Shown piece after piece: positions 5,894 to 58,240 of a stretch of 64,000 nucleotides of DNA (positions are counted from its first letter, which is position 1; every line of letters begins with the position of its first letter). Under the pieces are notes generated by a model, which did not search any database, was not told the DNA's origin, and worked only from the letters and a program-made list of their open reading frames with translations. Position numbers and translations under genes: made by a program. Origin of the DNA: Ostreococcus lucimarinus (taxonomy: Eukaryota); the NCBI GenBank assembly GCA_000092065.1, contig CP000582.1; one strand, given 5' to 3'.

Positions 5894-6585
5894 GATGGCG
5901 TCGAGCGCAGAGCGCGCGCCGGAGGGGGGCGCGCGGGGCGATTCGAGGGTCTGGGGGTGTAGGGTTTTCGGGAAGCGCGCGTTTCCGCGCGCGTTTCCGC
6001 GCGCGTGCGTGCGATGACTGACGAGTGGTACGACGCGCGTTTTGCGATCGGTAGGTTTCGTCCAAGACCACGGCTGCGGTTCCGCGCTCGAGCGGCCGCG
6101 TCGGTCTCGTCGTCGAGGCGTACAAGAGAGCGGCGAAGAAGACGAAGGCGGTGCTCTTGAAGACGTCCGACGTCGGCCAAGAGGGCGACATGGTCGAGGT
6201 CTCTAACGGTTTCTTCCGCTCGTACCTCGAGCCGCAAGGTTTGGCGACCAAGGTGAGCCAAGAACTGATGGCTGAGTTCGAGGCGAAGGCTGCCGAGGCG
6301 GCGGCGGCCAAGGCGAAGGAAGTGCAAGACGCCAAGGCGCTCGCGACGGCGCTCACGACGATTGGCAAGTTTGTGGTGAAGAAGACTGTGGGTGAAGATG
6401 GCAAGATTTTCGGCTCCGTCTCGGCGGCTGATGTGGTCGAAGCGATCAAGGCTCAAACTGGCAAGGAGTTGGAAAAGAAGGCTTTTGACGTCCCCGACAT
6501 TTCCGCCGTCGGCGTCTACGAAATCAACGCCACGTTCCACAAGCAAGCGCAGTGCAAGTTCCAGCTCGAAGTTGCGAAGGATTAA
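5894..6585 (+). CDS. rpl9: Organellar 50S ribosomal protein L9 (bL9) with an N-terminal transit peptide. Two exons: 5894..6004 and 6055..6585.
   Basis: The mature region VLLKTSDVGQEGDMVEVSNGFFRSYLEPQGLA aligns with the bacterial L9 N-terminus. The frame upstream of 6151 is open but has no ATG back to a stop at 6052. Exon 1 (MRAVPPSMASSAERAPEGGARGDS...) ends in frame at a GTGCGT donor (6005). The branch site GACTGACGAG and a TAG acceptor at 6054 follow. Confidence 0.8.
6005..6054 (+). other. Intron (50 nt) in the L9 gene.
   Basis: Donor GTGCGT, branch ACTGACGA 33 nt upstream of the acceptor TAG. The splice restores a Met start and a transit peptide in frame. Confidence 0.75.
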
Positions 6586-6748
6586 TTCGATCGATCACAC
6601 ACGATCACACATCGAATTCTTTTTCAAAACATTGTTTGAGTGCGAGCGCGCGCGGAGGGGAGGATAGAAAATCGCCGGCGACGACGAGTAGGATAATTCA
6701 ACGATTTCATGTAAAATGTTGGCTTCATTAAAACGTACAACCATTCAT

Positions 6749-7111
6749 CTAAGCGTTAACGTCGGTGAACTCGCTCGCGACCGTCTCGTATTCGTCGTAA
6801 TCATTCTCGGCGTACTCGGCGGCTCTCGCGTTGATCTCGTCCACCCAGCGGAATTGGTGCGGGACCAACGCCAGGTCGACGATGGCTTCACCCAGATTGT
6901 ACAACGCGTCGCGAAAGGGAACCATGGAGTATCGCACTGGTGCGAGAAACTGTTTCAACGAGCGCTTGTGCGCTTGAATCTCGTCGGCGTCCGCCGTGGA
7001 TGTCGCTTCGACCCTTCGACTCGATACAGACGCCAACACGCACAACGAGACACAAGCGATACGAGCAGTACTGCGTCGCGCGTGACGACGCTTACCTGCG
7101 TCAGATCGCAT
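6749..7111 (-). CDS. Hypothetical small protein (about 120 aa) with a hydrophobic N-terminal targeting or signal segment and an acidic C-terminus.
   Basis: ATG at 7111 begins MRSDAGKRRHARRSTARIACVSLCVLASVSS, followed by a non-repetitive region (LAPVRYSMVPFRDALYNLGEAIVDLALVPHQFRWVDEINARAAEYAENDYDEYE). It is convergent with L9. I recognise no family. Confidence 0.35.
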   Translation of the reverse strand: MRSDAGKRRHARRSTARIACVSLCVLASVSSRRVEATSTADADEIQAHKRSLKQFLAPVRYSMVPFRDALYNLGEAIVDLALVPHQFRWVDEINARAAEYAENDYDEYETVASEFTDVNA

Positions 7112-7349
7112 CCGACGATCTCTGGCCCTGAATTGCTGTCCCTCGCGAGGCTGAAAATGCGACGCGCGCCTTGAAACCGCGCGCACGCGAGCTCTCGGAC
7201 CAACAAACTCACGAAAGTCGGTTGATATCCCGAGAACGAAGAACACGCGTCATCTCGCGCCTCGCGGGCGTTCCTGCGCGGTGCGCGACGGCGTGAAACG
7301 AGAGAAAGCGCACACCCTTCACATCTCACGCCGCGCGGTCGTCACGATC

Positions 7350-12018: not shown

Positions 12019-15000
12019 CTATAGACCCCCCGGAAGCTCGGCGAAATCTAAAACGCCTGACGGCAAACTGGCTACGGCAGCGCACAGCGCCATGCGGTTG
12101 CGCTTCAACTCAGCATCATCCGCCATCACAAATACGTTGTCGAAGAATGCTGTCGCGGCGTTGTCCATTTCGCACACGGCGGAGATCATATCGGTCACCG
12201 AGCACCCGTCGACAATTTTGGCTCGAGCGGCGACGTACGCCGCGTGCAAAGCTCGCTCTTCTTCGCACTCAAAGCTCGCTTCGTTGATACGCAAGTCCGC
12301 GTTGGCGCCCATTTTGCCTCGAACCAAGCGGGTTGGTCGGCTGAGGACGCGCACGCAAGTCTCGAGCGCCTTTCCGTCCACGGCGACGAGCTCAGAGATG
12401 GACGCGCTCGCCAGCGCCGGACTGCCGCCGCGTTCCTTCAAAACGGCACGCACGCACTCGACATCGTTACCAGCGTCGATGAATAATTGCTCCAAACGAC
12501 GCGTGATGAACGTCACGCACTCCTCGATGCGCTCATTTGAAACCTCCACTGGTTGCTTCGCCGCAGCGAGTTCGATCAGCGAGCGCAAATCACACGTCGC
12601 TCCTGAATTCACGATGGTTTGAACCAAGCCGTACGCCGCGCGACGAAGACCAAAGGGATCAGCAGAAGCCTTCGGGCCACCGACCACGGCGAACAATCCA
12701 ATAAGAGTGTCGAGACGATCGGCAACGGCGACAGTGATCCCTGCTGGGGTACTCGGGAGGGCATCGCCCGCGCTTCGCGGCAAGCACGCTTCGAAGATGG
12801 CTTCGCTCACATTCGCGGGCAAGCCTTCTTTCTGCGCGTAATGACGGCCCATCGTCCCAGCCAACGCGGTGAGTTCCATCACCATGGCCGTCGCCAAGTC
12901 TGCACGCGCTAAACCCGCCGCCACCGTGGCTGGAGCGACGACATCAGGTCCGTATCCGAGCGCTGCGGCGACGTCCGCGACCAAGCCTTCGACGCGTTGA
13001 GTCTTTTCCAACATGTTCCCGAGTTCTTGTTGGAACGTGATACCACTGAGCTCGGGCTTGAACTCAGCCAACGGTTTGTTCAGGTCGGTCTCGTAGAAAA
13101 ATTTAGCGTCTTCGTACCTCGCTCGAAGCACGGCCTCGTTGCCGTGCTTCACCACGCCTTTGTCGCAAGAACCGTTGGCAAAGGTGATGAAGTGCGGCTT
13201 GAGCGCTCCGTCCGCGCCTTCGACGGGGAAATATCTCTGGTGTTTGCGCATAACCATCACCAACACTTCCTTTGGGAGCGTCAAAAACGCTTCTTCGAAA
13301 TCTCCCATGACTAAATTGGGCGCTTCGACCAAATTGGCGACTTCCTCGAGCAAGCCCTCGCCGGCGCTATCGGGGATTTCGCCGCCGACGGTTTTCGCTG
13401 CAGCTTTCGCCTCGCTCCAGATGCTCGACATACGATCTTCAAAGCTCAGTACGATCGAATCCTTCGCCAGTAAGGCGTGATATTCCGCTGCATTAGCCGC
13501 AGAGTATGTGTCGGTTACATCGCCTCGAGTGCGCAACAAACGCGTCGTCGTTCCGCTGTGCACGCCGAGAGCCTCAAACGTCAGGTGATGGTCGCCGTGG
13601 ACGCCGAAGAGCCAACGGAGCGGCCGCGAGAACGCAGCTTCCGAGTTCGTGGTCCATCTCATGGCACGCGGGAAGTTGATCGCCGCGATAATCTTCGGCA
13701 AAGCTTCTTCGAGGACAGCAACGGCTGAACGTCCCTCCTTCTTCACCACGGCCCACACGTATTCGCCATCTTTTTCCAATGCGCCGGCGTCCACGCCATT
13801 CTTTTTGCAAAATCCTTGGGCAGCCTTAGACGGAGTCGTACCGTCTTCTTCGAACGCGCGCGATAACGGCGGGCCGCGCACGCGTTCCTCCACGTTCGCT
13901 TGGCCTGCGCTCAGGGCTTTGATGCTCAGCGTGAATCTTCGCGGTGTGGCGCCGACGGAAATGCCCGCGTGCGTCAAACCCTCCGCCTTGAGCAAAGCAT
14001 CGACAGCTTCGTGAAACTGACGAGACGTGCTCGTGACGTCCTGAGGTGGTAATTCTTCAGTGCCGAGCTCGATGACGCAATCCGCCGGTGCGGTGGGGAT
14101 CGCACCGGTGTTCTCGACGAGAGACTTGGCCGGCGGCGCCTCCGACAGGCCGAGTGGATACCCGAGCTCCTCGCGACGCGCAACCCAAAGCTGCGCGGTT
14201 TCGCGCGCCAATTTGCGCATCGACGCGAATAGCTTTTGACGCTCAGTTACTCCGACAGCTCCTCGCGCATCGAGTACGTTGAACGCGTGCGAAGCCTTTA
14301 ACAAGTTGTCGAACGCTGGCAACGGAAGGCGCGCCTCAAGCATGCGAAGCGCCTCCTTATCCGCCAATTCGAACCGCGAGCGGTGCGTCTCCACGCTCGC
14401 CTGATCGAGGTTGAACACGGACATTTCATATTCCTCTTGCATGCGCATCTCGCCGTACGTCATCATATCGTTGTATGCGATATCCTTGAAGTGATCGACA
14501 CCCTGCAGCGCCATCAAAATCCGTTCTAAACCGTACGTAATCTCAACCGCTGTCGGCGCCACTTTCAACGAACCACACTGCTGGAAGTACGTGAATTGCG
14601 TCACCTCCATACCGTCCATCCACACCTCCCACCCGAGCCCCCACGCCCCGAGCACCGGGGACTCCCAGTTATCCTCGACGAAGCGCACGTCGTGCGCCCC
14701 GGTGTCGATACCCAACGCCTCGAGCGAGCCCAAATACAGCTCCTGCACGTTCTCCGGCGCCGGCTTCAAGATGACCTGAAACTGCGTATGCTTTTGCACG
14801 CGGTTCGGATTTTCACCGTATCGCGAATCGTCCGGTCTCACCGAGGGTTCGGGATAACACACGTTCCACGGCTCGGGTCCGAGCGCTCGCAAAAACGTCG
14901 CCGGGTTCATCGTTCCCGCCCCAACCTCCGTGTTATGCGGCAGCACGATCGCGCACCCACGCGAGCTCCAGTACTCTTGCAATCTTAAAATCGCATCTTG

Positions 15001-23062: not shown

Positions 23063-24314
23063 GTGCGCGCGACGCCGAGGCGCGGCGGCGACGGCGCGCC
23101 ACTCGACGCCGCGATGCGCGCCATGACGTCGTCGCGATCGACGTTCGCCGCGCCGATGCGCGCGATGCAAAACGCGAAAACGCCCGCGCGTCGACGCGGG
23201 GGGGCGTGCGCGACGCGCGCGCGCCTGGACGCGGGCGTGGGGGCGTTCGGGAGCAAGGCTGGGATGACGCAGGTGTTCACCGACGACGGGCTGTGCGTGC
23301 CGGTGACCGTGATCGCGGTGCGCGACGGGAACGTCGTGACGCAGGTACGGGAAAAATATCGAGCGAACGCGGGATGGCCGTCGGGGGGTCGGCGCGCGAG
23401 GGCGCGCGAGACGCGGCGAACGATTCGACCGACGCGCGGGCGCGTGAGGGTTGGACGACGGGGTCGATGGATGGGCGCGGCGCGCGCGATGCGTCGACGC
23501 GCGCGGCGCGTTCACGATGGGCGAACGATCGGGTGGTGTTATCGTCGATCGCGCGCGCGCGCGAAGGGCTCGGATGGGGCGGGCGAGGCGCGAGGAGGAC
23601 CGACGCTTCGCGCGCGCGGGGAGAAGCCCTAGGGCGAGGTTACCGTCGCGACGCGCGGGCGCGGGCGCGACGGACGGATGCGTTCGGGCGCGGCGTAGAG
23701 CGACGAAACGCGAAGGAGAGAATCAGAGACTGACGATATCGCGATTCGCGCGCGTTCGTGAAACACAGGTGAAGACTGAGGCGACGGATGGGTACAACGC
23801 GGTGCAAGTCGGCTACGACGCCGTGCGCGACGACAAGCTCACGAAGCCCGAACTCGGGCACTGCAAGAAGGCGGGCGCGCCGGCGCTTCGACACCTCGAA
23901 GAGTTCCGTTTGCGCGACGCTCCGACGTACGAAGTCGGGGCGCAAATCAAGCCGACGGAGTTGTTCAAGGAGGGTGATAAGGTTGACGTGCGAGGCCGCA
24001 CGATCGGTAAGGGGTTCCAAGGCGCCGTGAAGCGTTACGGTTTCTCGCGCGGTTTGATGACGCACGGTTCTAAATCGCACCGTCAACACGGTTCCATCGG
24101 CAGCGGTACCAACCCGGGTCGCATTTACCCGGGTAAGCGCATGCACGGTCACATGGGCAACGAGATGGTGACGACGAAGGGCTTAACCGTCGTCTCCGTC
24201 GAGGACGACTGCATCATCGTCAAGGGCAACGTGCCGGGCAAGAAGGGCGCTCTGTGCAAGGTGACGCCCAACAAGAAGGTCGGGGACGCGCGCTGGAGTC
24301 CCACGTCCGCGTGA
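23063..24314 (+). CDS. rpl3: Organellar 50S ribosomal protein L3 (uL3) with a transit peptide. Two exons: 23063..23344 and 23769..24314.
   Basis: Exon 1 ends ...[28 protein letters not shown] and exon 2 begins [16 protein letters not shown]... Joined, they reproduce the bacterial L3 block RVTQVKDLANDGYRAIQV. The downstream region has [29 protein letters not shown]. Confidence 0.85.
23345..23768 (+). other. Intron (424 nt) in the L3 gene.
   Basis: Donor CAG|GTACGG. Branch GACTGACGAT about 40 nt upstream of the acceptor ACACAG. Both exons are in phase 0 and the splice joins two conserved L3 blocks. Confidence 0.8.
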
Positions 24315-37425: not shown

Positions 37426-37998
37426 CCGACTGACACTCGTCGCGTCGCTCTTCTCTCGTCCCGACGGCGACGCCGCGCCGCTGCTTCCGGTTCGTCGCCG
37501 TCCCGAGCGCGCGCCTCGTCCCGAGCTCTTGCCAGAGTTTTGTTGCTCGGCCAGCTGCTTCTCGCGTTCTATCGCCTCCAGCGCGGTGAGCAGGCCGATT
37601 TGCTGTTCACTAAAGTCTTTCGCCGCGCTCTTCAGCGCGTACGCCGACGCGATGGCGAGCTGCGCGTCGCGTGAGCGTCAACCGTCAGTCCGAGGCGTTG
37701 GATTTCAAACAAACTTCAACTCTGCGCGCGGGCGAAGCGATGCGCACCGTCGACGCGAGGGCGGCGACGAGCGTGAACCCCACGAAGAACGCGCGCCCGT
37801 CGTCGTCGGACATGACGATCACCGCGCGCGCGTCGTGGACTGAGGACGGCGACGCGTCGGAGTCTCGGGACGTCTGGCGGCGCCGGCGCCGCCGCCGCCG
37901 AACGAACATCCGTGGATGCGACGATGACACGGCGATCGCTCGCCCGCTAAATATGTCGCTACAAACGCTAAACTAACGTCGCTAGGGGATCCGCGCGT

Positions 37999-39450
37999 CT
38001 ACGGCGCGGCGTCGAGCGGTGGCGCTCGAGCGAAGACGAGGCTGGCGTTGGTGCCGCCGAAACCAAACGAGTTGCTCATCGCCGCTCGAGCGTCGTCGCG
38101 CAGTCGAGCCGCGACGCCACCAGCGCCGACGATTGGGATTCGTAAGTTTGGGTCGACCGTGTCGTATCCGAACGTCGGAGGCACGTCTCCGGTGTGAAGA
38201 GCCATGACGGTGTACGCGGCTTCGATGGCGCCCGCGGCGCCGAGCAAATGCCCGGTGGCGCCCTTCGTGGACGTCGTGAGCACGCGCCCAGACTCGATCG
38301 CGTCCGCACCGAAGACTGTTTTGAGCGCCATGGCTTCTGCGGCGTCGCCCAAAGGCGTCCCCGTGGCGTGCGCGTTGACGTATCCAACGTCGAGCGGATC
38401 GTCGACGCCGGCGTCTCGCATGGCGGCTCGCATCGCGCGCGCCGCGCCTTCGCCATCCGGGCTCGCGCGCGTGACGTGGTGCGCGTCTCCCGACGCGCCG
38501 TAGCCGCGTATCTCGGCGTACACCTTATCGACGCCTCGCGCGCGCGCGTGTTCGAGAGTTTCGAGCACTAAAACCCCCGCGCCTTCGCCCATGACGAAGC
38601 CGTCGCGCGCGACGTCAAACGGTTTCGCTCTCCCCGTCGCGCTCAGCGCCCTCGCCTTGGCGAACGCCGCCAATGAAACGGCATCTATGCATCCCTCAGC
38701 ACCACCGGCGATCATCACGTTCGCATCGCCGCGCTGTAGCGCCCTAAACGCGTCCCCTATGCAGTGCGCCGACGTCGCGCACGCCGTCGCCGCCGCCAAA
38801 TTCGGCCCTCGAAACCCGTGATCCATCGATATCCTCCCCGCCCCCGCGTTGGCCAAAATCCGCGGCACAAAGTACGGCGATATCCTCCGCAGTTCACCCT
38901 TCGCCATCCAACCTCCCGCGCGCGTTAAATCGCTCGCGCCTCCCATCCCCGCGCCGAACGACACCCCCACGTCGTCCCTCGGCGCGTCCCTCGCGCTCGT
39001 CATCCCCGCGTCCTCGATCGCCTCCTTCGCCGCGCACCGTCCGTACGCCACGAACGACGCCAAACTTCCTCCATCGCTCCACGCGTTCGCGTCGTACCCT
39101 TCCCTTCGGTTCACGACGCCCGCGTGCCGCGTTCGCGCCCGCGCGCCGTCGCTCGCCGCGAGCGCGTTCCAGCACTCGCGCGCGAGATCGTCCTCGCGCA
39201 GCGCCCGCGTCGCGCCCGCGTTCGCCAGCAGCGCGCGCCAGTTCTCCGCCGTCGTCCGCGCGAGCGGGGTGACGAGTCCGACGCCCGTGACGACGACGCG
39301 GCGCGGATAAAGCGCGTCGAGCGGGACACCGCGCGCGTAATGGGACATCGACCGTCGCGCGTCGCCGAGGCGTCGCGAGCCATCGCGCGACGCGCGAAGC
39401 GCTTCGAGGACTCGCGTCGACGCGTCGCGACGCGCCGACGCGAGCGCCAT
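37999..39450 (-). CDS. KAS: 3-oxoacyl-[acyl-carrier-protein] synthase (KAS I/II family), organelle-targeted.
   Basis: RRVVVTGVGLVTPLA, the active-site Cys block AATACATSAHCIGDAFRALQRGD, NAHATGTPLGD, STKGATGHLLGAAG and GFGGTNASLVF are all present. ATG at 39450 (MALASARRDASTR..., presequence-like). Confidence 0.85.
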   Translation of the reverse strand: MALASARRDASTRVLEALRASRDGSRRLGDARRSMSHYARGVPLDALYPRRVVVTGVGLVTPLARTTAENWRALLANAGATRALREDDLARECWNALAASDGARARTRHAGVVNRREGYDANAWSDGGSLASFVAYGRCAAKEAIEDAGMTSARDAPRDDVGVSFGAGMGGASDLTRAGGWMAKGELRRISPYFVPRILANAGAGRISMDHGFRGPNLAAATACATSAHCIGDAFRALQRGDANVMIAGGAEGCIDAVSLAAFAKARALSATGRAKPFDVARDGFVMGEGAGVLVLETLEHARARGVDKVYAEIRGYGASGDAHHVTRASPDGEGAARAMRAAMRDAGVDDPLDVGYVNAHATGTPLGDAAEAMALKTVFGADAIESGRVLTTSTKGATGHLLGAAGAIEAAYTVMALHTGDVPPTFGYDTVDPNLRIPIVGAGGVAARLRDDARAAMSNSFGFGGTNASLVFARAPPLDAAP

Positions 39451-39537
39451 CGCGGTGTGCGGCGTCGACGACGCGATGACGTCGACGATGGATGCGACGG
39501 CGACGGCGACACAGAGCGACGCGCGGTGCCGACGGCG

Positions 39538-40398
39538 ATGACGCGCGCGCTCGGCGCGACGCGCGCGAGCCGCGGGCGCGTCGCGCGCGTCTCGCGCGTC
39601 TCGCGCGACCGGACGACGCGCCGAGCGCGCGGCGCGACGCGCGTCGAAGCCGCGGCGGATAAAGCGCCGTCGGTCGTCGTGCTCGGAGGGTCGGGATTCG
39701 TCGGCGCGCGCGTCGTCGAGGCGCTCGCGCGCGCGGGCGCGCGCGTGACGACCATCTCTCGCTCGGGACGCGACGCGACGGGCGCGCGCGAGGCGCGGGC
39801 GGTGGATCTGGCGGAGGCGAGCGCGGCGCGCGAGGCGCTGGCGGAGGCGCTGCGAGACGTCGACTGCGTCGTGTCGTGCGTCGGCGTCATCGGCGGCGAT
39901 GACGAGGCGATGCGGAGAGGGAACGGGGATCATAACGTGCTCGCGATCGAGGCGGCGAAGAAAGCGGGCGTCGGGCGGTTCGTGTACGTGAGCGTGGCGA
40001 GCGTCGTGCCGGACGTCGTGGGCAAGACGCCGTTGATGAGGGGGTACTTTGAGGGTAAGCGCGACGCGGAGGCGTGCTTGCGCGAGAATTACGCGGAAGG
40101 TGATTACTTCATCGTGAAACCGAGCTTCATTTACGGCGGGGATGCGTTTTCGTTGACGCCGCCGCGAGTGACGAAGACGTACGGCGACGTCTTGGCCAAG
40201 GTGCTCGGCAGCGGACCCGTCAAGGCTTTGGCGGCGAAAGCGCCGGGACCGATCGCGTTGACGCTCGCGGAACCGGTGAGCGTGGAAGACGTCGCGGGTG
40301 CGTGCGTGGCGGGCGCGATGGGGACGTACAGCGCGTCCAACGTCGTCGACGGGACGGACGACATCAAAAAAGCCGCCGCCGCCGTCGCCGCCGCGTGA
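39538..40398 (+). CDS. NAD(P)-binding Rossmann-fold protein (NmrA/atypical SDR, epimerase-like) with an N-terminal targeting region.
   Basis: VVVLGGSGFVGARVVEALARAGARVTTISRSG is a GxxGxxG Rossmann motif. The gene is divergent from KAS, with the ATGs about 87 bp apart. TGTAA lies about 20 nt after the stop. Confidence 0.7.
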   Translation: MTRALGATRASRGRVARVSRVSRDRTTRRARGATRVEAAADKAPSVVVLGGSGFVGARVVEALARAGARVTTISRSGRDATGAREARAVDLAEASAAREALAEALRDVDCVVSCVGVIGGDDEAMRRGNGDHNVLAIEAAKKAGVGRFVYVSVASVVPDVVGKTPLMRGYFEGKRDAEACLRENYAEGDYFIVKPSFIYGGDAFSLTPPRVTKTYGDVLAKVLGSGPVKALAAKAPGPIALTLAEPVSVEDVAGACVAGAMGTYSASNVVDGTDDIKKAAAAVAAA

Positions 40399-41872: not shown

Positions 41873-42837
41873 TCACTTTTGGCCGAACAAAGACTTGAAC
41901 GCCTTGATGGCGTTGGTGTTGATGAGCGGCTCGTCGAACTTGTCCATGAGCTCGGTGAATTCGGGCTGCTTTTGCACGAATTCCAAGCTCGGGTCGGTGC
42001 GAATCTTGCGGTAGTCGATCCAACCCGCGGACATGCATCGCTTGAGCGCGAGCAAGGATTCATCCGCCTTGCCGAGCTTGGAGAAGCAGCACGCGATGTT
42101 GTACTGAGCGACCTTGTAGATCTCCGTCGTCTTGGAAAAATCGTCACCCATGTAGTTCTTCGGTTCCAACGCCGCGACTTCCTCAAAGACGATTAACGCG
42201 TTGTCGAAATCCTTGCCGTTGTAAAGCTCGATGGCTTCGTCGAACATGTCTAATCTCTGGTTCTCCAACTCGCGCTTTTTGGAGTAGTTGTTCATTTGTT
42301 GTTCCTTCGTCCCGGCGCCGTAGTTACCACCCGCGCGTTCGCTCTTGAACGCCGAGCTCTTTTCGGTTTGTTGAAGCGCCGACAAGTCGCCGTCCATGTC
42401 CGTCATCTTCAAGTAGATGTCGCCGTTTCTATTCTTAATCGCGTACATCACCTGTCCGTACGACTCAGCGCCCCAGATCTCATCCCCGAACGACGCGCTC
42501 ACGGCTTCAATCTTATCGCCGACCTGGAATCGGTCGTAGATCGGGTCCGTGGGGACGAAGACGACGTACGCGCCGCCGTCGTTGCCTCGGTTAAACTTCA
42601 GCTCGATCGGCTTCGGGAGCGTCGCTGTGTGGAAAGGAAACGCGCGTTTCATCGTCAGTCATCGCGCGCGAACGAACACACGAAAGTGGCTCTGGGCGTA
42701 CCTTCGTACGTGTCCCCCTTGGCCGCGCGCACGACGGAGAACCGGCGCGCGATGTGCGAGTGACGTCGATCCTTGGTGAAAGTGGATAACGACGCCGTGT
42801 TGAGCGCCGCGGCGCGCTGGGCGTGCAGAGCGGACAT
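41873..42837 (-). CDS. PDZ plus TPR domain protein (MET1/TEF30-like photosystem II assembly factor) with a plastid transit peptide. Two exons: 42692..42837 and 41873..42624.
   Basis: Exon 2 has a PDZ-like region (GAYVVFVPTDPIYDRFQVGDKIEAVSASFGD) and TPR repeats (YNIACCFSKLGKADESLLALKRC). Exon 1 (MSALHAQRAAALNTASLSTFTKDRRHSHIARRFSVVRAAKGDTYE) is a classic S/T/A/R-rich transit peptide. It ends at a G|GTACGC donor. The intron has the branch site GACTGACGAT and the acceptor CACACAG, and the frame is preserved. Confidence 0.65.
42625..42691 (-). other. Intron (67 nt) in the MET1-like gene.
   Basis: Minus-strand donor GTACGC, branch ATGACTGACGATG 28 nt upstream of the acceptor CACAG. Phase 1 is preserved. 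Confidence 0.6.
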
Positions 42838-44980
42838 AAATGCGTGCGTGTGCGTACGCGCGGGGCTCGTTCGCGCGGAATAGGCGCGCGCGGTGACGAC
42901 GGAGCGTCGAGAACTGTGGAACGAGGCGCTACGGCGACGAGATAAAGCGCGAGCGGCGGCTGAGAAGCGAGGGATGACTTTCGCGCGTTGTGTGCGTTAC
43001 AACGAACGACGAGCGATGGTGGCCTAGGTGTGAGGAAAAAGTAACGTCGTGTGGTCAGCGTCTCGAATGCGAGCAAACGCGAGATTGGATTTAGTCCGTA
43101 ATTTAGTGACGTTCGCGCCGTAAGGATGCGCGCTCGTCGTGGAGTCATTGGACCACAAACCGGTTGTCTGGCCGGCGTCCCGCGAGCGGGACAAGATTGA
43201 TGTGCGCGACGGAAGTAAAAAGATCATCTCCACCGTTAAGTAAGGAGCGCCTTAGGCAAAGTCGCGGGAGGTTTTGTCGAAAAAGCGTCCTCGGTTGGAC
43301 TCGGACGTTTGGCCGTCGGAACGATTCGGCGGCGGCGGTGCGGTGTACAAAGCCTCGGGAAGTTTGAAGCAATGTAATTAGTGTTCATTCACGACGTCTT
43401 AAGAAACGAGTTGTTCGTCATCGACTTCGTACGCCACACCTCGCACACCCGGTATCGTTCGTTCAATCAAACATTCGTCCGCAGGAAGAAAATCTCGCGA
43501 CGAACCAAAGCTCATTACTTCTTAGAGGTTGATTAAGCCTCACGGTGAAATCAGCATCGGTTTTTGGAATCACGGCAAAGCGTTCATCGCGAGCGAGAAA
43601 ACGTAAGCAATCGTCGAGAGATGTCGCGCTGACGATTGAGCAGGCGACTGTGGATAGCAGCCACCTACTCACCCATGTCAACGCTGTCGGCTGTACCTTA
43701 GAACGACGGGAGAGCAGCACATGCGGCCGAAGCCTGATCAGCCCTCTGCTTTGTCAAGGAAACGAGGACGAGCAAACCGAATCGATAGAACGCGCCGTGA
43801 CACGTACCTGGCGTTCACGACCCTCAATGGTAGTTTTTGCCATGCCTGCGAATGAAAGAAAAGAGGCGTAAAGGTGAGTCTTGCGCGCGTCGTCGAACGA
43901 ATGTGGTGGAACTACGGAGGAATTTCGACGACTTGTAAACGCCAAAGCTCCACGGAGAGCCCATCCCCTTTTAATCTCGCCTTCGCTCAAAACTGACACG
44001 CGGAATTGAATCGCGGGGGTTCTAATTCCTCGATTCTCTGCGGGCAGCTCTGCAGCGAAGGCTTTCGCCGACGAAAAATACGTCGCGTCGTTCGTCGTCC
44101 CGTCCCCGAGCGAGCACCCGTTCACGACTCCCACGGCGCGATCGCCTCAGTCGAAAGATGGTGAATTATGTTTTGATTCTTCACGGTGTTCAGCCAGTAT
44201 GGACACGTTTACATCCCAGACGTCGGCCGCTTCGATCCCGGGCGTTGCTCTCGCGCGAAGGCCGCCGACGACGCCGACGACGACGCGCCGAATGTGAAAT
44301 CGAATAAGGGCGCGCGTCGAGTCGATTCCCCCGACGCGCGCGTGACAATGATCGACCTCTCTATTCACTCTCGGGCGCGTTAGGTTTCCCTTCGGACGCG
44401 CGGCATGGCGGTTATCAGCCGCCCCGCGACCCGTACACACAAACGCCCGCGCGCGCGAGAAAAACAACCGAAACAACCAACACCAACAATCCCTCTCCAC
44501 CGCGTCTCGGCCGATATGCTCAATTGACGTCACGACGACGCGCGCGGTTTTATTCCGGGTAACTAATCCGGCCGCGCGCGCGTCTCAGTAGCCAAGCGTA
44601 AAAGTTTTCGTCATCGACGTTCGGGCGATTGATGTTCGCGTGGCGTGATTCTTCGCGTCGAGGTCTCGCGCGTCGTCGTCGACGCGCGTCGCGTCGCCGT
44701 CGCGCGCGTCGCGTTCGCGCGCGTCGTCGCGCGCATCGCGTCGTCGTCGCGCGCACCTCGCGTCGCGTCTCGCGCGTCGTCGCGCGCGCGAAGTGCGGCG
44801 CGCGCGCGCGCCGGCGGCGGCCCAATAAACCACGCACAATACGACACCACGGGCGATTTTCGCTCGAAAATGCCGCGCGCGATAAATCGAGGGTTTTGCG
44901 CGAGGTGTCGCGCCCCGGCGAGGCGGCGATCGCGCGTCGTCGATCCGCCTTTTAGCGACGCGCGACCGTCCGTCGACACC

Positions 44981-45854
44981 ATGGGGGTGCGTCTCGCGAC
45001 GCTCGACGCTCGACGCGATGCGCTCGACGCGCGCTCGACGCGCGCCGCGGATCTCGCGTCGCGCGCGCGACGCGCGACGACGACGACGACGCGACGCGAA
45101 CGCGACGCTAGGGCTTTGAGCCCTCGCGCGCGCCGTCGCGGAAGACGACGATGCGCGAGCGCGCGTCGACGACCGCCGACGCGCGAGACGAGTGAAAACG
45201 TAGAAGAAATACTGACGAATCGCGCGCGAGTCGTTCGCTCGATAGGCTTACAAGTATGTGGAAGAACTTTGGAAGAAGAAGCAATCCGATGTGATGCGCT
45301 TCTTGCAGCGGATTCGCGTGTGGGAGTACCGGCAGTTGCCGTCCATCTGCCGCGTGACGCGACCGACGCGACCGGATAAGGCTCGACGACTTGGATACAA
45401 GGCCAAGCAAGGTTTCTGCATCTACCGCGCGCGCGTGCGCCGCGGTGGACGCAAACGACCGGTGGCGAAGGGTCAGGTGTACGGGAAGCCGGTGCACTGC
45501 GGTATCACGAAGTTGAAGTTTGCGCGCAACTTGCGATCGGTCGCGGAGGAACGCGCGGCGCGACGATGCGGCGCTTTGCGAGTGTTGAACTCGTACTGGT
45601 TGAACCAAGACTCGGTGTACAAGTACTATGAGGTGATCATGGTGGACCCGATGCACAAGTGCGTGCGCAACGACCCGCGCATCAACTGGATCTGCAACCC
45701 GACGCACAAGCACCGCGAAATGCGCGGTCTCACGTCCGCGGGGCGCAAGTACCGTGGCTTGCACGGCAAGGGTCACAACTTCACCAAGTCTCGTCCGTCC
45801 AAGCGGGCCACCTGGAGAAACAACAACCGCTTGTCCTACCGTCGCTACCGTTAG
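44981..45854 (+). CDS. RPL15: 60S ribosomal protein L15 (eL15). Two exons: 44981..44986 and 45246..45854.
   Basis: Exon 2 begins [20 protein letters not shown], which matches human RPL15 residues 3 onward (AYKYIQELWRKKQSDV). An in-frame stop lies immediately upstream of it. Exon 1 is ATGGGG (M-G), followed by the donor GTGCGT. Confidence 0.9.
44987..45245 (+). other. Intron (259 nt) in RPL15, placed after the second codon.
   Basis: Donor GTGCGT, branch ATACTGACGAAT about 33 nt upstream of the acceptor GATAG. The splice recreates the conserved MGAYKY N-terminus. Confidence 0.85.
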
Positions 45855-46036
45855 AACAGGGTTTCGAAGAAAAGTTAGTCGAGCACCACTTTTTAGCATA
45901 TTTGCTTGCTTGCGAATTTGTAATTACATCTTGGCGAGTGAACTTCCTTTAAGTAGTCTTGAACTCTCGCGAATCGTACAGAGGGATTATAGTGGCGGCG
46001 ATAAAGCTCGCTCGCGACGGCGCGACGTCGGAGGGC

Positions 46037-48880
46037 TTACACTTTCTTGGCTCGAATCGCGGCTTGCGCCGCGGCGAGACGTGCGATGGGCACGCGGAAC
46101 GGCGAACACGAGACGTAGTCGAGACCGCTCTTCGCGAAGAACTCGACAGAGATCGGTTCGCCACCGTGCTCACCGCAAATCCCAACCTTCAAGTCGGGGC
46201 GCGTGGAGCGACCGCGCTCAACGGACATTTGGACGAGTTGCCCGACGCCGTCGACGTCGATGACTTGGAAAGGATCGTGCTTCAGCACACCTTTTTCGAG
46301 GTACGTGGGCAGGAACTTACCCACGTCATCGCGAGAGTAACCGAACGTCATTTGCGTCAAGTCATTCGTACCGAACGAGAAGAACTCGGCGTGTTTGGCG
46401 ATTTCATTCGACAACAGCGCCGCGCGAGGAATCTCGATCATGGTACCCACGCGGTATTCCACAGAGTCCCCACGCTCGCCGAAGACGACGTCCGCGGTTT
46501 GACGAATCAACGCCACTTGATCTTCGAGTTCGGCGACGGTGCCGACGAGCGGGACCATGATGTCGGGAATCGGCGACGCGCCCTCGGCTTTGGCTTCGCA
46601 CGCGGCTTCGAGAATGGCGCGAACTTGCATTCGCGCGATTTCTGGATACGTGATGGCCAATCGGCAGCCGCGGAAACCCAACATCGGGTTCACTTCGACG
46701 AGCTTTTCGATGCGCTCGACGATGTCTTCTTCAGTCTCGCCAGTGTCCTCGCTGAGAAGTTGAACGACGTCGTCCAACTCGCCGTCGGGCAAGAACTCGT
46801 GAAGCGGAGGATCGAGAAGGCGAATGGTCACCGGCAAACCGCTCATGGCGTGGAAGATGCCCTTGAAATCATCTCGCTGGAACGGCAACAGCGCATCGAG
46901 CGCGGCTTCGCGGGAGGGCGTGTCCTTGGCCATGATCATCCGACGCACGGTTCGAATGCGCTCGCCGCTGCCAAAGAACATGTGCTCCGTGCGCACGAGA
47001 CCGATGCCTTCGGCACCGTTGGCGCGCGCCGCGGCGGCATCTTCGGGCGTATCGGCGTTTGTCAGCACCTTCATGTCACGGAATTCGTCGACCCAAGACA
47101 TGAACGTGCCCAAATCTTCGCTCACAGTCGGTGGCATGAGATCGGCGCGACCGCGAATGATTTCGCCCGTGGTACCGTTCAAGCTCAACCAGTCGTTTTC
47201 ATGAAGCGTGACGCCACCCAAAGTGAACGTGCGCGCGTGCTCGTCGATGGACAACTCGCCGCAGCCAGAGACGCACGTCTTACCCCAGCCGCGAGCGACG
47301 ACGGCGGCGTGCGACGTCATGCCGCCGCGCGCGGTCAAGATGCCCTCGGCGGCGTCCATGCCGCCGACGTCCTCGGGCGAGGTTTCGACGCGAACCAAGA
47401 TGACCTTGCGACCTTCGGCTTTCGCGGCTTCGGCGTCTTCGGTGCTGAAGACGATTTGTCCGACGGCGGCGCCCGGTGACGCGGGCAAGCCGGCGCCGAT
47501 GACGTCGGCCTTGTACGCGCCCTCGTCTTTAAACTGCGGATGAAGCAGTTGATCGACGTGCGTGGGTTCGACCATTTGCACGGCTTCTTCCTTGGTCACC
47601 AAGCCTTCCTTCACGAAGTCGACCGCCATTTTCACCGCGCCCGCGCCCGTGCGCTTGCCCGAGCGACATTGAAGCATGAAGAGTTGGCCGTCCTCGACGG
47701 TGAATTCGATGTCTTGCATGTCTTTGAAGTGCAATTCCAAGAGTTCCGTGTTCTTCACCAACTGCTCGTACGCCGCGGGCAACGCGTCCTTCATGGTTGA
47801 GATATCGCTCGGCGTGCGAATGCCCGCGACGACGTCCTCGCCTTGAGCGTTGACCAAGTACTCGCCGTAGAGCTTATTCTCGCCCGTGCTCGGATTTCTC
47901 GTGAACAACACCCCCGTTCCGGAAGTCTCGCCCATGTTCCCGAACACCATGGCTTGAATGTTCACAGCCGTGCCTCGCAAACCGGTGATCTTGTTGATGG
48001 CCATGTACTTCTTCGCCCGGTCGCTGTTCCACGAGTCGAAGACGGCGTACGTGGCGAGACGCAACTGCTCGAGCGGATCTTGCGGAAACGACACGTTTTC
48101 CGAGGCGTACACCCCCTTGTAGATCTCAACCAAGTCGCGCAAGTTTTGCTCGCTCAGTCCTTCGTCCGAATCCACCCCGACGTCGCGCTTCAGCGTCTCC
48201 AGCGCGTGTTCAAACTTGCCGTGATCGATCCCCATGACGACGTTGCCGTACATGTCGAGAAATCGGCGATACGAGTCAAACGCGAAGCGTCCACCGGCGC
48301 GTCGAGCCAACCCCTCGACCACGGAATCGTTCAACCCAAGATTCAGCACCGTGTCCATCATCCCCGGCATCGACACCGCCGCGCCGCTCCTCACGGACAC
48401 CAACAGCGGATTTTCCGCGTCCCCCAGCGTCTTCCCCAGCGCCGCCTCCACGTGCGCCAGCCCCGCGACCATCTCCTCCCACGCCCCCTCCGGCAGCGCC
48501 CCACCGTTCGCGTGAAAGTCCGCGCACGTCTCCGTGTCCACGGTGAATCCCGGCGGCACGCTCAGCCCGACGCGCGACATCTCCGCCAGATTCGCCCCCT
48601 TCCCTCCCAGGCGCGCCTTCGCGTCGCGCGCGCCCTCCGCCCGTCCCCCTCCGAATCGAAACACCCGTCCGAGCCCCCCCGAGGCCGCGTTCGCGATCGC
48701 GCGTTCGCTCGCGTCCGTCGCCTCGTTCCCGTTCGCGTCCGTCACCGACGCGCGCGCGCCGCGTCGCGCGCGCGCCCCGTTCGCGCGCTTCCGCGTCGTC
48801 GACGTCGGCGCCATCGTTTTCGCGCCGGTTGGCCTTCTCGCCGTCGGCTGCGTCATCGTTCGCGTCATCGATCGCGCCAT
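46037..48880 (-). CDS. PPDK: Pyruvate, phosphate dikinase (PPDK) with an N-terminal transit peptide.
   Basis: [23 protein letters not shown], the catalytic His block [22 protein letters not shown] and the C-terminal PEP-utilising domain are present. ATG at 48880 ([17 protein letters not shown]...). Confidence 0.9.
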
Positions 48881-49231
48881 CGTCGGTTGTCGCGACGGTC
48901 GGCGCGCGCGTGAACGTCGTTCGGACGTACCCCGAACGATCGGTCGCGCGCGCGGCGCGTGCGCGTGTCGCGGCGTCGCGCTTTGACGCGCGCGCGACGA
49001 CGATGCGTCGATCGAGCGGCACCCTCCCTCGCGAGGGGCCTCGGGGCCTCGATCGATCGCGCGGCGCGCGAAAATAGCGCTCGAGGCCCCCTGAGTACGG
49101 GTTTTCGGCGTTTTCCGGGTGTCGGGGCGTGCGTGGCCCGGGGGTCGGACACACGGGTGTGTGTAAACAGTCATTACGTGTATTTATTTATTTATGCATG
49201 TACGCATCGCGACGCGCGCGATCGCTCGCCC

Positions 49232-50272
49232 ATGCCGCCGTCGACGATTCGCGCGCGCCGCATTGATTCGAACGCGTCGTCGCAAAACATGGGCGTGCTG
49301 TGGGCGCTTCCGGTGCCGTACGCCCGCGCGATGCTGCGCGACACCTTCGTCGACGCGATCGCGACGCGCGTCTTGGCGCTGTACGGCCTCGTCGCGCTCG
49401 GGACGTACGCGATGCCGAAACTGTGGGTGCAGATGATGCCGGCGCAAAATTTAAGGAAAAAGTACGGCGCGACGTGGGCGCTCGTCACGGGCGGGTCGAC
49501 GGGGATCGGACGATCGCTCGCGGAGGCGCTGTTGGATCAAGGGCTGAACGTCGCGATCGCGGCGCTGGACGACGAGGCGCTGGTGGAGACGACGAAGGCG
49601 CTGCGGGAGCGACACGGGGCGAAGCGCGAGGTGCGGGCGATCGCGGTGAACCTCGGGGATCGCTCGGGAGGGTACGTGGACGTCATCGCGCGCGCGATGG
49701 AGGACGTGGACGTGCAGTGCGTGTTCAACAACGCGGGGTTCATGCTGACGGGGTTTTTCGATAAGCAACCGTTGGAAAAGTTGAACGCGAATCACGAGTG
49801 CAACGCGACGAGCGCGATGCGAATCACGCACGTCTTCGTGACGAGAATGCTGGAGAAGAAACTGCGAGGGTGCGTGGTGTTCACGTCGAGCGCGGCGGCG
49901 TGTCAACCGACGCCGTTTTCGGCGCTCTACGGCGCGACGAAGGCGTACGTATCCTCCTTCGCGGCGAACATCGGCGTCGAGTTGAAATCTCGCGGCGTCG
50001 ACGTCTGCGCGGTGCATCCGTCGCCGGTGGCGTCCCGTTTCTACGACAACGCCCACAAGTTGGATTCGTTGAACTTTTTCATGAAGTTCGCGGTGAAGCC
50101 CGAAGAGCTGCCGACGGAGATGTTCCGCCCGATCGGTCGCGTGTTGTGGCACGACGTCGGCGCCGTCGCCGTCGGCTTTCGCATGCTCCTCAAGCTCCTC
50201 GACTACGGTTTCTTCGCCACCCTCATCTCTCGCTTCGCCCACTTCATGGGCGATTACAAAAAGAACGTGTAG
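49232..50272 (+). CDS. Short-chain dehydrogenase/reductase (ketoreductase/17beta-HSD-like) with an N-terminal membrane anchor.
   Basis: WALVTGGSTGIGRSLAEAL (TGxxxGxG), NNAG, and the catalytic S...YxxxK block SALYGATKAYVSSFAANIGVELK are present. An N-terminal hydrophobic segment is VLALYGLVALGTYAM. An alternative ATG is at 49289. Confidence 0.8.
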   Translation: MPPSTIRARRIDSNASSQNMGVLWALPVPYARAMLRDTFVDAIATRVLALYGLVALGTYAMPKLWVQMMPAQNLRKKYGATWALVTGGSTGIGRSLAEALLDQGLNVAIAALDDEALVETTKALRERHGAKREVRAIAVNLGDRSGGYVDVIARAMEDVDVQCVFNNAGFMLTGFFDKQPLEKLNANHECNATSAMRITHVFVTRMLEKKLRGCVVFTSSAAACQPTPFSALYGATKAYVSSFAANIGVELKSRGVDVCAVHPSPVASRFYDNAHKLDSLNFFMKFAVKPEELPTEMFRPIGRVLWHDVGAVAVGFRMLLKLLDYGFFATLISRFAHFMGDYKKNV

Positions 50273-55082: not shown

Positions 55083-57017
55083 ATGGAGACGATCGAGCGG
55101 GCGAGAGGGCGCGGAGACGCGAACGACGGGACGACGAGTAGGCGCGAGGCGCGCGGGGACGCGAACGAGCGAAGCGAGACGACGGCGAGCGAGGACGCGA
55201 TGGAGACGGGAGGGCGAGATGAGGACGCGAACGCGATGGGAAAGGATGACGGGAACGGTAAGGGGGTCGTGCATGGGATGTCGATATCGGCCGCGATCGC
55301 GGCGAGACCGACGATGGACGCGGAGTTGACGACGAAGGCTGTCGTGTCGCACGCGTTGGCGAAGAACGCGCACCTGCGAAAGGTTGCGGGCGAAAGCGCG
55401 GGCAAGGATCCGAAAAAAGGGAAACCAAAGAAAGAGAAACCGCCGAATCAGTCGCGAGAGAACCGGCGCGTGCGACAGTTTCGGAGCGCGTCGGAGATTT
55501 CGCAAGAGGAGCTTTCGAGTTGCTTTCATCTTCCATCCGAGGCTGCGTGCCGAAAGCTCGGCGTCGGTTTGACGGTTTTGAAGCGCCAGTGTCGCAAATA
55601 CGGCATCGCGCGTTGGCCGTTCCGCAAGATGAAATCGCTCGATCGCCTCATCACGAACGTGCAAGCTGGAATTTCGCCAGGCGATCAGAATAAACTTCTC
55701 GTCAAATCGGTGGAGGAGCTCGAAGATCAAAAACGCAGGATGGAGGAATGCGCGGTGTTGGATTTGGACGACACCACAAAGAAATTGCAGCAGGCGTATT
55801 CGAAGGCTAACCACAAGGCGCGAAGAAATCGAAGCGATGCGTCGCGGATTCGAGCCGTCGCCGCGGCGCAAGCCGTTCGCGAGCTTCAGGCGCGCGCTCG
55901 AGGCGGGTACGGAGAAGAACCGAACGGTGCGAGCGGCATGCTGTTGGACCTCGCGCACGAGCTCGCTATGGGATCAGAAAATGGAGATGACGACGACGAA
56001 GGCTCGTCGGACGATGGGTTCGACAACGAAGACGAAGATGTGACTACCGATGCGGACGCCGGCGCTTCGACGCCGGCGTCGCGAGGGGCGAAATCGGCGA
56101 GCGGCGCGACGACTCCGGATAGAATCACACCGACGAACAACAGCGATGGAACTCCGTTGCAAAGTGCACCGCAACTGCTGAGCAACACGCCGAGCGACGC
56201 CGGTGCGGCGATACCGAACATTGTGAAGGACGAAGGCGGCGACGGCGGCGCGCCGTCGTCCAACGTCATGGTGCAGAAAGGTTCGGCAAACGCCAATGAA
56301 TTCGTCAAGGTGGACAAGGTGCTAACCGCGGTGCGAGGCACGTGGTCTCCGGCGCGACCAGCGAGAAAAACTGATGACTTAGACGGTGCGGAGGCGTTTC
56401 TCAGTCCAGCGAGCAGGCGCAAAGGTGGTAAGTTGGGAGAGGCGTTGAGCGACGACGAATACGAAAAGATCACCATGTCGGTGCAAAAACGACGAGGTCG
56501 TCCTCCTGGACCATCCAAGCGCGGACGTAAGCGTAAGGGTGCCGAAGTTGAAGACGACCCACTCGCCTCGCTCGCCGCCGCCGCTTTGGATTCCATGGGC
56601 ACGACGAAGAAGACAGCCGTCGCCGCGACGCGCGGACGTCCGAAATCCGTGCCTGCTGCGGATAAAACGAGCAGACTCACCGCGTCTGGAAAGATTACCG
56701 CGGCGTCAAAGTACAGGATGGACGTCCCCGCGGTGACGGAAGATCACCCGGCGTACGGCTTGACGGCGGGCTTCACCGCCAAAGGCGCGAGAAGCGGCGT
56801 CGCGTCACGACTCAGTCAAGTCGAGCGCAGCGACCTCGAGCACTTGCTCCGCGAACGCCTGAAAAAAGGTAAGATGGCGCTGTGCGACGCGTTCGGTATC
56901 GCTCCCGCGGAATACGACCAACACTTCGACCCAAAGCTTCAAGCCACGTCGCTCACGAACGCCGTCGAGAAGCTCGCGGTGAAGAGCGCAGCCAAAATGC
57001 GCCGCCTCGAGGCGTGA
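55083..57017 (+). CDS. RWP-RK domain transcription factor with AT-hook motifs.
   Basis: The RWP-RK domain is EELSSCFHLPSEAACRKLGVGLTVLKRQCRKYGIARWPFRKMKSL. The AT-hooks are KRRGRPPGPSKRGRKRKG and TRGRPKSVP. Confidence 0.8.
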   Translation: METIERARGRGDANDGTTSRREARGDANERSETTASEDAMETGGRDEDANAMGKDDGNGKGVVHGMSISAAIAARPTMDAELTTKAVVSHALAKNAHLRKVAGESAGKDPKKGKPKKEKPPNQSRENRRVRQFRSASEISQEELSSCFHLPSEAACRKLGVGLTVLKRQCRKYGIARWPFRKMKSLDRLITNVQAGISPGDQNKLLVKSVEELEDQKRRMEECAVLDLDDTTKKLQQAYSKANHKARRNRSDASRIRAVAAAQAVRELQARARGGYGEEPNGASGMLLDLAHELAMGSENGDDDDEGSSDDGFDNEDEDVTTDADAGASTPASRGAKSASGATTPDRITPTNNSDGTPLQSAPQLLSNTPSDAGAAIPNIVKDEGGDGGAPSSNVMVQKGSANANEFVKVDKVLTAVRGTWSPARPARKTDDLDGAEAFLSPASRRKGGKLGEALSDDEYEKITMSVQKRRGRPPGPSKRGRKRKGAEVEDDPLASLAAAALDSMGTTKKTAVAATRGRPKSVPAADKTSRLTASGKITAASKYRMDVPAVTEDHPAYGLTAGFTAKGARSGVASRLSQVERSDLEHLLRERLKKGKMALCDAFGIAPAEYDQHFDPKLQATSLTNAVEKLAVKSAAKMRRLEA

Positions 57018-57186
57018 TCTAGCTCCCCGTATTTCGACAATAATTGTAAGATATGCTCACGACCGAATCGTGCCCGTCTCGCGTCGCTCGCGTCTCGATT
57101 TCGTCGCGCCCGCCGAGTCGCGCTCGCGTTCTGGACCCTAAGCGTCGTCGCGCCCGCCACTCTCGAGCGCGCGCCGTCTTCGCACG

Positions 57187-58240
57187 ATGCCCTCCCTCAG
57201 CGCCCCAGGCACGATCTCAAAGATCAGCGTCACCCCGTCCGTGGTGTTGAACGTGTGCGACAGGTACGCGCGCGCGCGAACGCGCGGCGACGAAACGTCA
57301 CGACGTGACGAACCTAAAAATTGCGGCGAACGTGAAAACGACGCGAAAGCGACGTCGCGCGACGCGCGCGGACGCGATGACGCGCGCGAGAGCGATGTGA
57401 CTGACGGTCGTCGACGCTGCGCGAACGAACAGCTACGTGCGACGCGGTGAGGCGGTGGACAAGGTGATCGGCGCGGTGCTCGGGACGGCGACGACGACGG
57501 CGGACGGTCGCGTCGTCGTCGTCGCGCGCACGTCGTACGCGATTCCGTGCCACGATCGCGATGGGGAAATGTTCGTGGACGTTGAATTTCATAAGACCAT
57601 GCTCGGATTGCACGCGAGGGTGAACCCGGAGGAACGCGTGGTCGGGTGGTTTAGCGCGGGGAGCGTGACGCCGGAGGCGCGAGCGCTCGTGCACGAATTC
57701 TTCGCCAAGGAAGCGCTGAATGGGACGCCCGTGCACGTGATGTTAGATGCGGACTTCACCGGTGCTGGAAACGGCGGGGAGATGCTCAGCGCGAGCGTCG
57801 GGGACACGGTGCTGGCGACGACGGATCGGGAGAGCGGCGAGAGCCGATCGGCGGGCGTGTGGTTTAGCGAAATCGAGTGCGAGGTGGATCTTCAGCAAGC
57901 CACAAAGTTGGGCGTCGAATCGCTTCGATCCGCGAGCTCGGCGAAAGACGACGACGACGTCGCTGGGCTGGCGCAGACTATGGGTAAATTGGGTAAGCTG
58001 TTGACGGACGCGCAGGCGTACGTCGACGCGGTGGTGCGCGGCGAACGTCAGGGCGACGCCGAAGTCGGTCGCGCGCTCTCCGCCGCGCTCGCCGGTGTCC
58101 CGCAGCTCACGAAGGCGCAGTTCGACAAGGTGTTCGGAGACAGCGCCGAGGATGTGATGATGGTGCGGTACTTGACGAATTTGACGAGGACGCAGCTCAC
58201 GCTCGCGGAAAAATTGCACACCGCCGCGCTCATCGTCTAA
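57187..58240 (+). CDS. EIF3F: Eukaryotic translation initiation factor 3 subunit F (eIF3f, MPN domain). Two exons: 57187..57263 and 57433..58240.
   Basis: The exon 2 blocks VDVEFHKTMLGLHARVNPEERVVGWFSAG and VMMVRYLTNLTRTQLTLAEKL match eIF3f ([29 protein letters not shown] ... [21 protein letters not shown]). Exon 1 (MPSLSAPGTISKISVTPSVVLNVCDR) supplies the missing start of the MPN domain. The spliced junction reads ...CDS|YVRRGEAVDKVIG, matching the human DSYERRNEGAARVIG. Confidence 0.9.
57264..57432 (+). other. Intron (169 nt) in eIF3f.
   Basis: Donor AG|GTACGC, branch GTGACTGACGGT 22 nt upstream of the acceptor AACAG. The spliced frame reproduces a conserved eIF3f block. Confidence 0.85.

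Follow-up and report, generated by a model that had tools for sequence, protein, structure and literature searches.

The window, the whole 64,000-nucleotide (64-kb) stretch of contig CP000582.1 that was analyzed, belongs to Ostreococcus lucimarinus CCE9901. Spliced models of two of its genes, those for RPL15 and L9, are identical to GenBank proteins of this strain, and that for L3 agrees from residue 18 on. The GenBank entries matched by genes of the window are all located on a single record of 895,087 bp. Six introns were located in the window, in the genes for the chloroplast ribosomal proteins L9 and L3, the cytosolic ribosomal protein L15 (RPL15), subunit f of eukaryotic initiation factor 3 (eIF3f), a MET1-like tetratricopeptide repeat (TPR) protein, and AMP deaminase (AMPD). 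The evidence supports their being spliceosomal introns whose donor is rigid and atypical, having C at +4 and G at +5, and whose branch box, ACTGAC, is almost invariant. Six introns had been proposed from an earlier reading of the same sequence (the original prediction), and four of them were right: L3, RPL15, and eIF3f as written, and the MET1-like intron with a corrected donor. The 5' boundary of its L9 intron was wrong, its candidate at 43816 is unsupported, and the AMP deaminase intron had been missed. The introns and the candidate donor are listed by position in the window, with lengths in nucleotides (nt); slashes in the sequences below mark splice sites.

5676-6054, plus strand: chloroplast ribosomal protein L9, phase 0 intron of 379 nt, preceded by 57 nt of coding sequence (ATG at 5619)
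23345-23768, plus strand: chloroplast ribosomal protein L3, phase 0 intron of 424 nt, preceded by 231 nt of coding sequence
37660-37747, minus strand: AMP deaminase, phase 0 intron of 88 nt, preceded by 66 nt of coding sequence (ATG at 37813)
42625-42701, minus strand: MET1-like TPR protein, phase 1 intron of 77 nt, preceded by 136 nt of coding sequence (ATG at 42837)
43811-43816, minus strand: CAG/GTACGT, the sixth candidate donor of the original prediction, no intron boundary on present evidence
44987-45245, plus strand: cytosolic ribosomal protein L15 (eL15, RPL15), phase 0 intron of 259 nt, preceded by ATGGGG only
57264-57432, plus strand: eIF3 subunit f, phase 2 intron of 169 nt, preceded by 77 nt of coding sequence (ATG at 57187)

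All six introns begin with GT[AG]CG, which appears as GTGCGT and GTACGC in two introns each and as GTGCGC and GTACGG in one each, while only 7.2% of the GT dinucleotides in the window are followed by [AG]CG. The branch motif ACTGACG is present in all six and GACTGACG in five, the branch adenosine lies 25-35 nt from the 3' splice site, and every acceptor is a YAG (CAG in four, TAG in two). The octamer ACTGACGA had been claimed for every intron; the eIF3f and AMPD introns both carry ACTGACGG instead, and what is shared throughout is the core ACTGACG. On both strands together ACTGAC occurs 16 times in the window, and 6 of these occurrences fall inside the 1396 nt of sense-strand intron, which represent 1.1% of the strand-specific sequence (binomial P about 1e-8), always 25-35 nt before a YAG. 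The co-occurrence of the donor, branch motif, and acceptor signals is far from chance. The shortest intron has 77 nt and the longest 424 nt; a range of 50-424 nt had been stated. Between 6 and 231 nt of coding sequence precede the introns, which are close to the 5' ends of their genes, as had been predicted, but not always within the first 100 nt or so of the coding sequence. The GC content is 0.57-0.71 in the introns and mostly 0.58-0.71 in the window.

Excision was shown for the L3, L9, and MET1-like introns. The signals of the L3 intron are CAG/GTACGGG, the branch site GAGACTGACGAT (also given as GACTGACGA), and ACACAG/, with 35 nt from the branch adenosine to the 3' splice site, and the exact 60-nt spliced junction was found in three transcript contigs (L013-L015), which confirmed the intron at 23345-23768. 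In a protein search with the spliced L3 product, the nearest clusters included Ostreococcus proteins. This product is the same as P0140 over all 258 residues and as XP_001416053.1 from residue 18 on; P0140 is encoded on short contigs that have no intron. The L3 proteins of Micromonas, Mantoniella, and other Ostreococcus have ...GNVVTQVKTE... with no gap. The orthologous intron of L004, from a related species, has kept GTACG, ACTGACGA, and CAG in an otherwise diverged intron body, and likewise the signals are conserved and the body has diverged in L007.

In the L9 gene, the intron signals are ACG/GTGCGTG, ATGACTGACGAG (6017), and GGTAG/, with 33 nt between the branch adenosine and the 3' splice site. 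The first exon comprises 19 codons (MFTVSAPTHASLRAFKPNT), the model spliced across 5676-6054 is identical to XP_001416049.1, and the 60-nt junction 5675/6055 was found in two RNA contigs, L020 and L021. The original prediction had placed this intron at 6005-6054, with the branch site and acceptor correct but with an intronic, out-of-frame GTGCGT as donor, 329 nt downstream of the true one. Neither of the two upstream ATGs is in frame with position 6005, the only in-frame path from there contains a stop and no ATG, and the junctions 6004/6055 and 6008/6055 were absent from the transcript contigs. A donor at 6009 (GTGCGA, giving an intron of 46 nt) is in frame, yet it was rejected, being absent from both the transcripts and the protein collection.

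For the MET1-like gene, the signals are AAG/GTACGCC, ATGACTGACGAT, and CACACAG/, the last 30 nt after the branch adenosine. The intron had been predicted at 42625-42691 and is real, while its donor is the GT at 42701, 10 nt away from the predicted one. Four RNA contigs (L009-L012) encode the spliced protein of 295 residues (P0207), with both flanks aligned and the intron absent, and the junction was read directly in L009 as ...ACGTACGAAG/CGACGCTCCCG. The GenBank protein XP_001416302.1 is an unspliced model of 259 residues, which starts at an ATG within the branch box of the intron and does not include the 45-residue presequence found in the MET1-like transcripts.

For RPL15, eIF3f, and AMPD, the exon junctions were shown. 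The RPL15 intron has the donor GGG/GTGCGTC, the branch site AATACTGACGAA (also given as TACTGACGA), and the acceptor GATAG/ at 30 nt from the branch adenosine. The spliced model of 204 residues is identical to XP_001416062.1, in agreement with the predicted 44987-45245, and ATGGGGGCTTACAAG is uninterrupted in contigs of a relative with 88% nucleotide identity. A GAG 15 nt past the branch adenosine is bypassed, and use of its AG at 45230 would lead into an in-frame TAG. In eIF3f the signals are CAG/GTACGCG, GTGACTGACGGT, and GAACAG/, with a branch-to-acceptor distance of 28 nt. The predicted intron at 57264-57432 stands, with O. tauri P0237 and land-plant eIF3f gapless across CDS/YVRR. The O. 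tauri orthologue (L022), located on CAID01000002.2, which judged by its numbering is presumably chromosome 2 of that species, carries an intron at the same codon with CAG/GTGCGCG, TATACTGACGAC, and ACGCAG/ and with a diverged body. GenBank XP_001416068.1 is a "partial" eIF3f model of exon 2 only, and exact look-ups of the spliced eIF3f and AMPD models in the protein collection gave no match.

The AMP deaminase intron was found with ACG/GTGCGCA, the branch site CGGACTGACGGT (in the scan, GGACTGACGG), and GCGCAG/, 25 nt after the branch adenosine. Its second exon is a 920-codon AMP_deaminase open reading frame (ORF; Pfam E = 1.5e-267), to which the first exon joins in frame on splicing, and the two halves of a hydrophobic N-terminal segment are thereby united; the unspliced translation ends at a stop inside the branch box. 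A protein search with the N-terminal 259 residues returned one match, which starts downstream of the junction, and its contig gave the orthologous intron. In the syntenic contig L143 from a related species, a 103-nt AMPD intron lies at the same codon with GCG/GTACGGG, CCGACTGACGAC, and CGCAG/, the flanking codons are conserved (IASAYALK.AAKDF.EQQ), and the intron body is unrelated and AT-rich. No transcript of the AMP deaminase junction of this strain was found, and the exact look-up was negative.

The claim that the introns restore N-termini missed by the ORF track was borne out, and three CCE9901 GenBank models in the window (MET1-like, eIF3f, and AMP deaminase) appear to be 5'-incomplete. 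The intron-bearing genes had been described as all translation or organelle genes, which fails because AMP deaminase, belonging to neither group, also carries such an intron. The sixth candidate donor did not hold up either. No ACTGAC lies downstream of 43816 on the minus strand, and three of the RNA contigs in which the MET1-like intron is spliced (L009-L011) run through this site unspliced; it sits in a 2-kb stretch, transcribed upstream of the MET1-like gene, in which no ORF is convincing.

The strict motif scan GT[AG]CG ... ACTGACG ... YAG locates introns well in the O. lucimarinus genome but does not fix the donor, as the misplaced L9 donor illustrates. A stricter intron scan of the window yielded one new true intron (AMP deaminase) and several false ones; a candidate at 49405-49765 was discarded as it falls within the continuous ORF of a short-chain dehydrogenase. 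A permissive scan with GC donors allowed produced about 3000 candidates in this CG-rich sequence and was of no use. An additional ACTGACGA at 14016 on the plus strand is antisense inside the glycyl-tRNA synthetase gene and was set aside as a chance match.

The splice signal is real, is ordinary for the lineage, and has already been published; its finding here is a rediscovery in the species of first description. In the section "The peculiar case of Ostreococcus", Irimia & Roy 2008 (PLoS Genet 4:e1000148, PMC2483917) reported ACTGAC in 87.2% and GACTGACG in 66.5% of 319 O. lucimarinus introns outside chromosome 2 that were confirmed by expressed sequence tags, and 5' splice sites of 4.8 bits with "the atypical consensus GTGCGTG". 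The window introns share with these the species, the donor with C at +4, the ACTGAC/GACTGACG box, and a yeast-like rigidity in an intron-poor genome, and none of them is different in kind. That study treated chromosome 2 as one weak-signal set, whereas the introns of the window, whose O. tauri orthologue is presumably on chromosome 2, are strong-signal introns in a high-GC stretch. All four marks of the strong-signal Mamiellophyceae class were found, namely the donor, the branch motif, removal from mRNA (by exact spliced junctions for L3, L9, and MET1-like, and by annotation, homology, or orthologous introns for the other three), and a high-GC Mamiellophyceae locus. Three of the six introns lie in ribosomal-protein genes and all lie near gene 5' ends, which matches the published excess of introns among highly expressed O. 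lucimarinus genes (Lanier et al. 2008, PMC2367439).

The same donor and branch motif are known from related genera, as Mamiellales favor GYGCGY donors (bioRxiv 10.1101/2022.06.08.495308) and the canonical introns of Micromonas combine AG/GTGCGT with NCTGAC (Verhelst et al. 2013, PMC3879977). The canonical introns of M. pusilla and M. commoda (PMC3879977; van Baren et al. 2016, PMC4815162) also occur at few introns per gene, and Micromonas, like Ostreococcus, has a separate atypical intron class in low-GC regions. M. pusilla differs in that GC donors are numerous and introner elements run into the thousands; neither was seen in the window. The BOC introns, which occupy the low-GC half of chromosome 2 (40-65 nt, AT-rich, GTRNGT donors, no discernible branch motif), were rejected as a class for the window introns; these are 77-424 nt long, have a strong branch box, and do not fall below a GC content of 0.57. 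U12-type introns (/RTATCCTT donor, TCCTTRAC branch site) were rejected as well, the donors and branch sites of the window being unlike both. Saccharomyces cerevisiae, with GUAUGU donors and the UACUAAC box, is likewise intron-poor; its introns are 5'-biased and enriched in ribosomal-protein genes, their branch box is near-invariant, and their pyrimidine at +4 mismatches an unchanged U1. It differs in AU at +3/+4 compared with GC or AC in the window, in CUAAC compared with CUGAC, and in an independent evolutionary origin.

With a probability of roughly 0.93, the six are U2-type spliceosomal introns of an ordinary kind and belong to the "canonical" class that occurs across the high-GC bulk of Mamiellophyceae genomes. 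In this compact, intron-poor genome, the splice signals keep close to a strict consensus of (A/C)(A/C)G/GT[G/A]CG, (G)ACTGACG, and a YAG 25-35 nt after the branch adenosine, and the small nuclear RNAs (snRNAs) would be unmodified; the pairing scheme draws on standard spliceosome chemistry and on O. tauri snRNA sequences. U1 (AUACUUACCUG) would base-pair at +1, +2, and +5 of the intron, in many cases also at +6, and either as a wobble or as a full pair at +3; the mismatch at +4 would be tolerated. Budding yeast tolerates its +4U likewise. U2 GUAGUA would pair with ACUGAC via one G-U wobble and with the branch adenosine bulged, and the first YAG at a suitable distance, about 30 nt downstream, would then be used. 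The branch site had been called non-canonical; ACUGAC matches the general CURAY consensus, can pair with the standard U2 GUAGUA, and is unusual in its rigidity only.

Several points weigh against this assignment to the canonical class. The RPL15, eIF3f, and AMPD junctions were obtained from annotation, homology, and comparative data and not from RNA of the same strain. The U1, U2, and U6 sequences are those of O. tauri, the basis for O. lucimarinus being a statement in a preprint. Half of the donors are GTACG and not the published GTGCG, a slight departure at +3 that, with six introns, is possibly sampling only. The branch site of Micromonas introns lies 43-52 nt from the acceptor (PMC3879977) compared with 25-35 nt in the window, so that details vary between genera.

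The original prediction had instead implied a compensatory change in U1, whereby the +4C donor would be read by a co-evolved U1 with the 5' end ACGUACCUG (a U1 beginning AUACGUACCUG). Compensated pairs of U1 and 5' splice site have been reported for Mastigamoeba and Entamoeba. The pairing logic of this proposal is correct, as +4C would find its partner in a G at position 5 of U1, and a U1 of this kind (ACGUAC) has been reported for Mastigamoeba balamuthi together with GUGCGC donors (bioRxiv 10.1101/2022.06.08.495308), which resemble those of the window. While the U1 5' end is altered in those amoebae, that of Ostreococcus is not: U1 of O. tauri starts with ATACTTACCTG, and its U2 and U6 carry GTAGTA and ACAGAGA, respectively (medium-size RNA study, PMC7671301, supplementary file 2), despite the use of the same donor type in that species, as in the CAG/GTGCGCG of eIF3f. 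Roy & Bowser 2022 searched five Mamiellales genomes, including O. lucimarinus, with a U1 model relaxed opposite intron positions +3/+4 and reported the standard pairing region in every Mamiellales species with an identified U1 candidate, in contrast to the true compensation that they describe for Entamoeba and Mastigamoeba (bioRxiv 10.1101/2022.06.08.495308). Both sources contradict a compensated U1, which we consider very unlikely here.

Two further explanations concern the origin of the shared motifs. If the introns were copies of mobile introner elements, of a family like those of Micromonas (the short IE-C/ABC-IE of M. commoda), they would owe their motifs to common descent. The IE-C family of M. 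commoda does carry the GACTGACG branch motif (PMC3879977), and CGCGACG-rich stretches are common to the longer window introns. An all-against-all BLAST of the six introns, in this one 64-kb window, returned only low-complexity CG-rich matches that were equally found at dozens of exonic and intergenic places, however, and the intron lengths are widely spread. Moreover, other Ostreococcus-like genomes have the L3, eIF3f, and AMPD introns at an unchanged codon position but with diverged bodies, which identifies these introns as old, position-conserved singletons. An introner origin is extremely unlikely. Alternatively, the motifs might co-occur through CG-rich composition alone, with the segments retained in mRNA and the gaps in the ORF track reflecting alternative start codons. 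GT[AG]CG is indeed common, with 562 sites in the window, ACTGACGA by itself is weakly enriched (5 found, 2.3 expected), and the GenBank models of MET1-like and eIF3f do not include the intron. The spliced transcripts refute this explanation for L3, L9, and MET1-like, and the concentration of ACTGAC in sense-strand introns 25-35 nt before a YAG and the gapless homology across the RPL15, L3, and eIF3f junctions leave it with a next to negligible probability.

No snRNA, and hence no U1 gene, was detected when the complete window was scanned against Rfam with gathering and E-value thresholds. A metagenome scan with the U1 pattern TACCTGG...ATCANGAAG...ATTGCAC gave 128 matches, mostly animal and plant U1s, and no real U1 with ACGTACCTG, but the pattern cannot match the U1 of Ostreococcus because O. 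tauri U1 reads TACCTGT and CCTTGCAC. In two GC-rich metagenome contigs (L124, 4999-5164, and L076, 2236-2401), a U1 snRNA with an Rfam score of 72.6 bits and the 5' end ACATACCTGG was observed. The A at position 5 of this U1 would pair with a GUAUGU donor, and a compensated U1 in some eukaryote is therefore possible. In another metagenome contig (L085, 138-1616), snRNA genes are clustered as U3-U1-U2, and the U1 among them is standard.

The telo-box-like heptamer ARCCCTA (motif forms ARCCCTA / AAACCCTA) occurs exactly three times on both strands of the window, at 5960-5966 (minus), 23625-23631 (plus), and 45109-45115 (minus), in each case inside the first intron of a ribosomal-protein gene (L9, L3, and RPL15, respectively). 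The nominal chance of this distribution is about 5e-6, a value that is inflated since the motif was defined after being seen. The L3 copy, AGCCCTAG, has been kept in two other Ostreococcus-like genomes (L004 at about 9866 and L007 at about 245) while the rest of the intron has diverged. The eIF3f intron contains a near-variant, AACCTAAA, and the orthologous O. tauri intron contains GGTTTAGG. These 5' introns might have been retained in a streamlined genome as hosts of a plant-type telo-box regulatory element that coordinates the expression of translation genes, although we regard this as rather unlikely.

Among the neighboring features, a C/D-box small nucleolar RNA (snoRNA)-like element at 44139-44225 on the minus strand was assigned to the Rfam snoZ196/R39/R59 family. 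Its score of 42.7 bits falls short of the gathering score, and its E-value, taken over the entire window, is 0.0023. The guide sequence TCACCATCTTTCG...CTGA is similar to the one in Ot-CDsno46 of O. tauri. The element lies within the 2-kb stretch of generally lower GC content (42900-44340) that has no convincing ORF and is transcribed continuously with the MET1-like mRNA, as RNA contig L009 spans 44337 to 41811. This stretch may be a snoRNA cluster or a host transcript.

In the relative with 88% nucleotide identity (L016, a contig of ENA ERZ4842444), a short-chain dehydrogenase gene follows about 300 nt after RPL15, whereas in the window it lies 3.4 kb further on (45854-49290 compared). A pyruvate phosphate dikinase gene (46037-49174, minus strand) is found between the two genes in the window only and not in L016. 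A separate 644-residue ketoacyl-synthase gene (37999-39933, minus strand) adjoins AMP deaminase. The window opens with a 1498-residue ORF at 120-4616 on the plus strand, which contains KR, ACP, and ketosynthase domains and is part of a polyketide synthase; the region of this ORF has the lowest GC content in the window (0.54-0.55).

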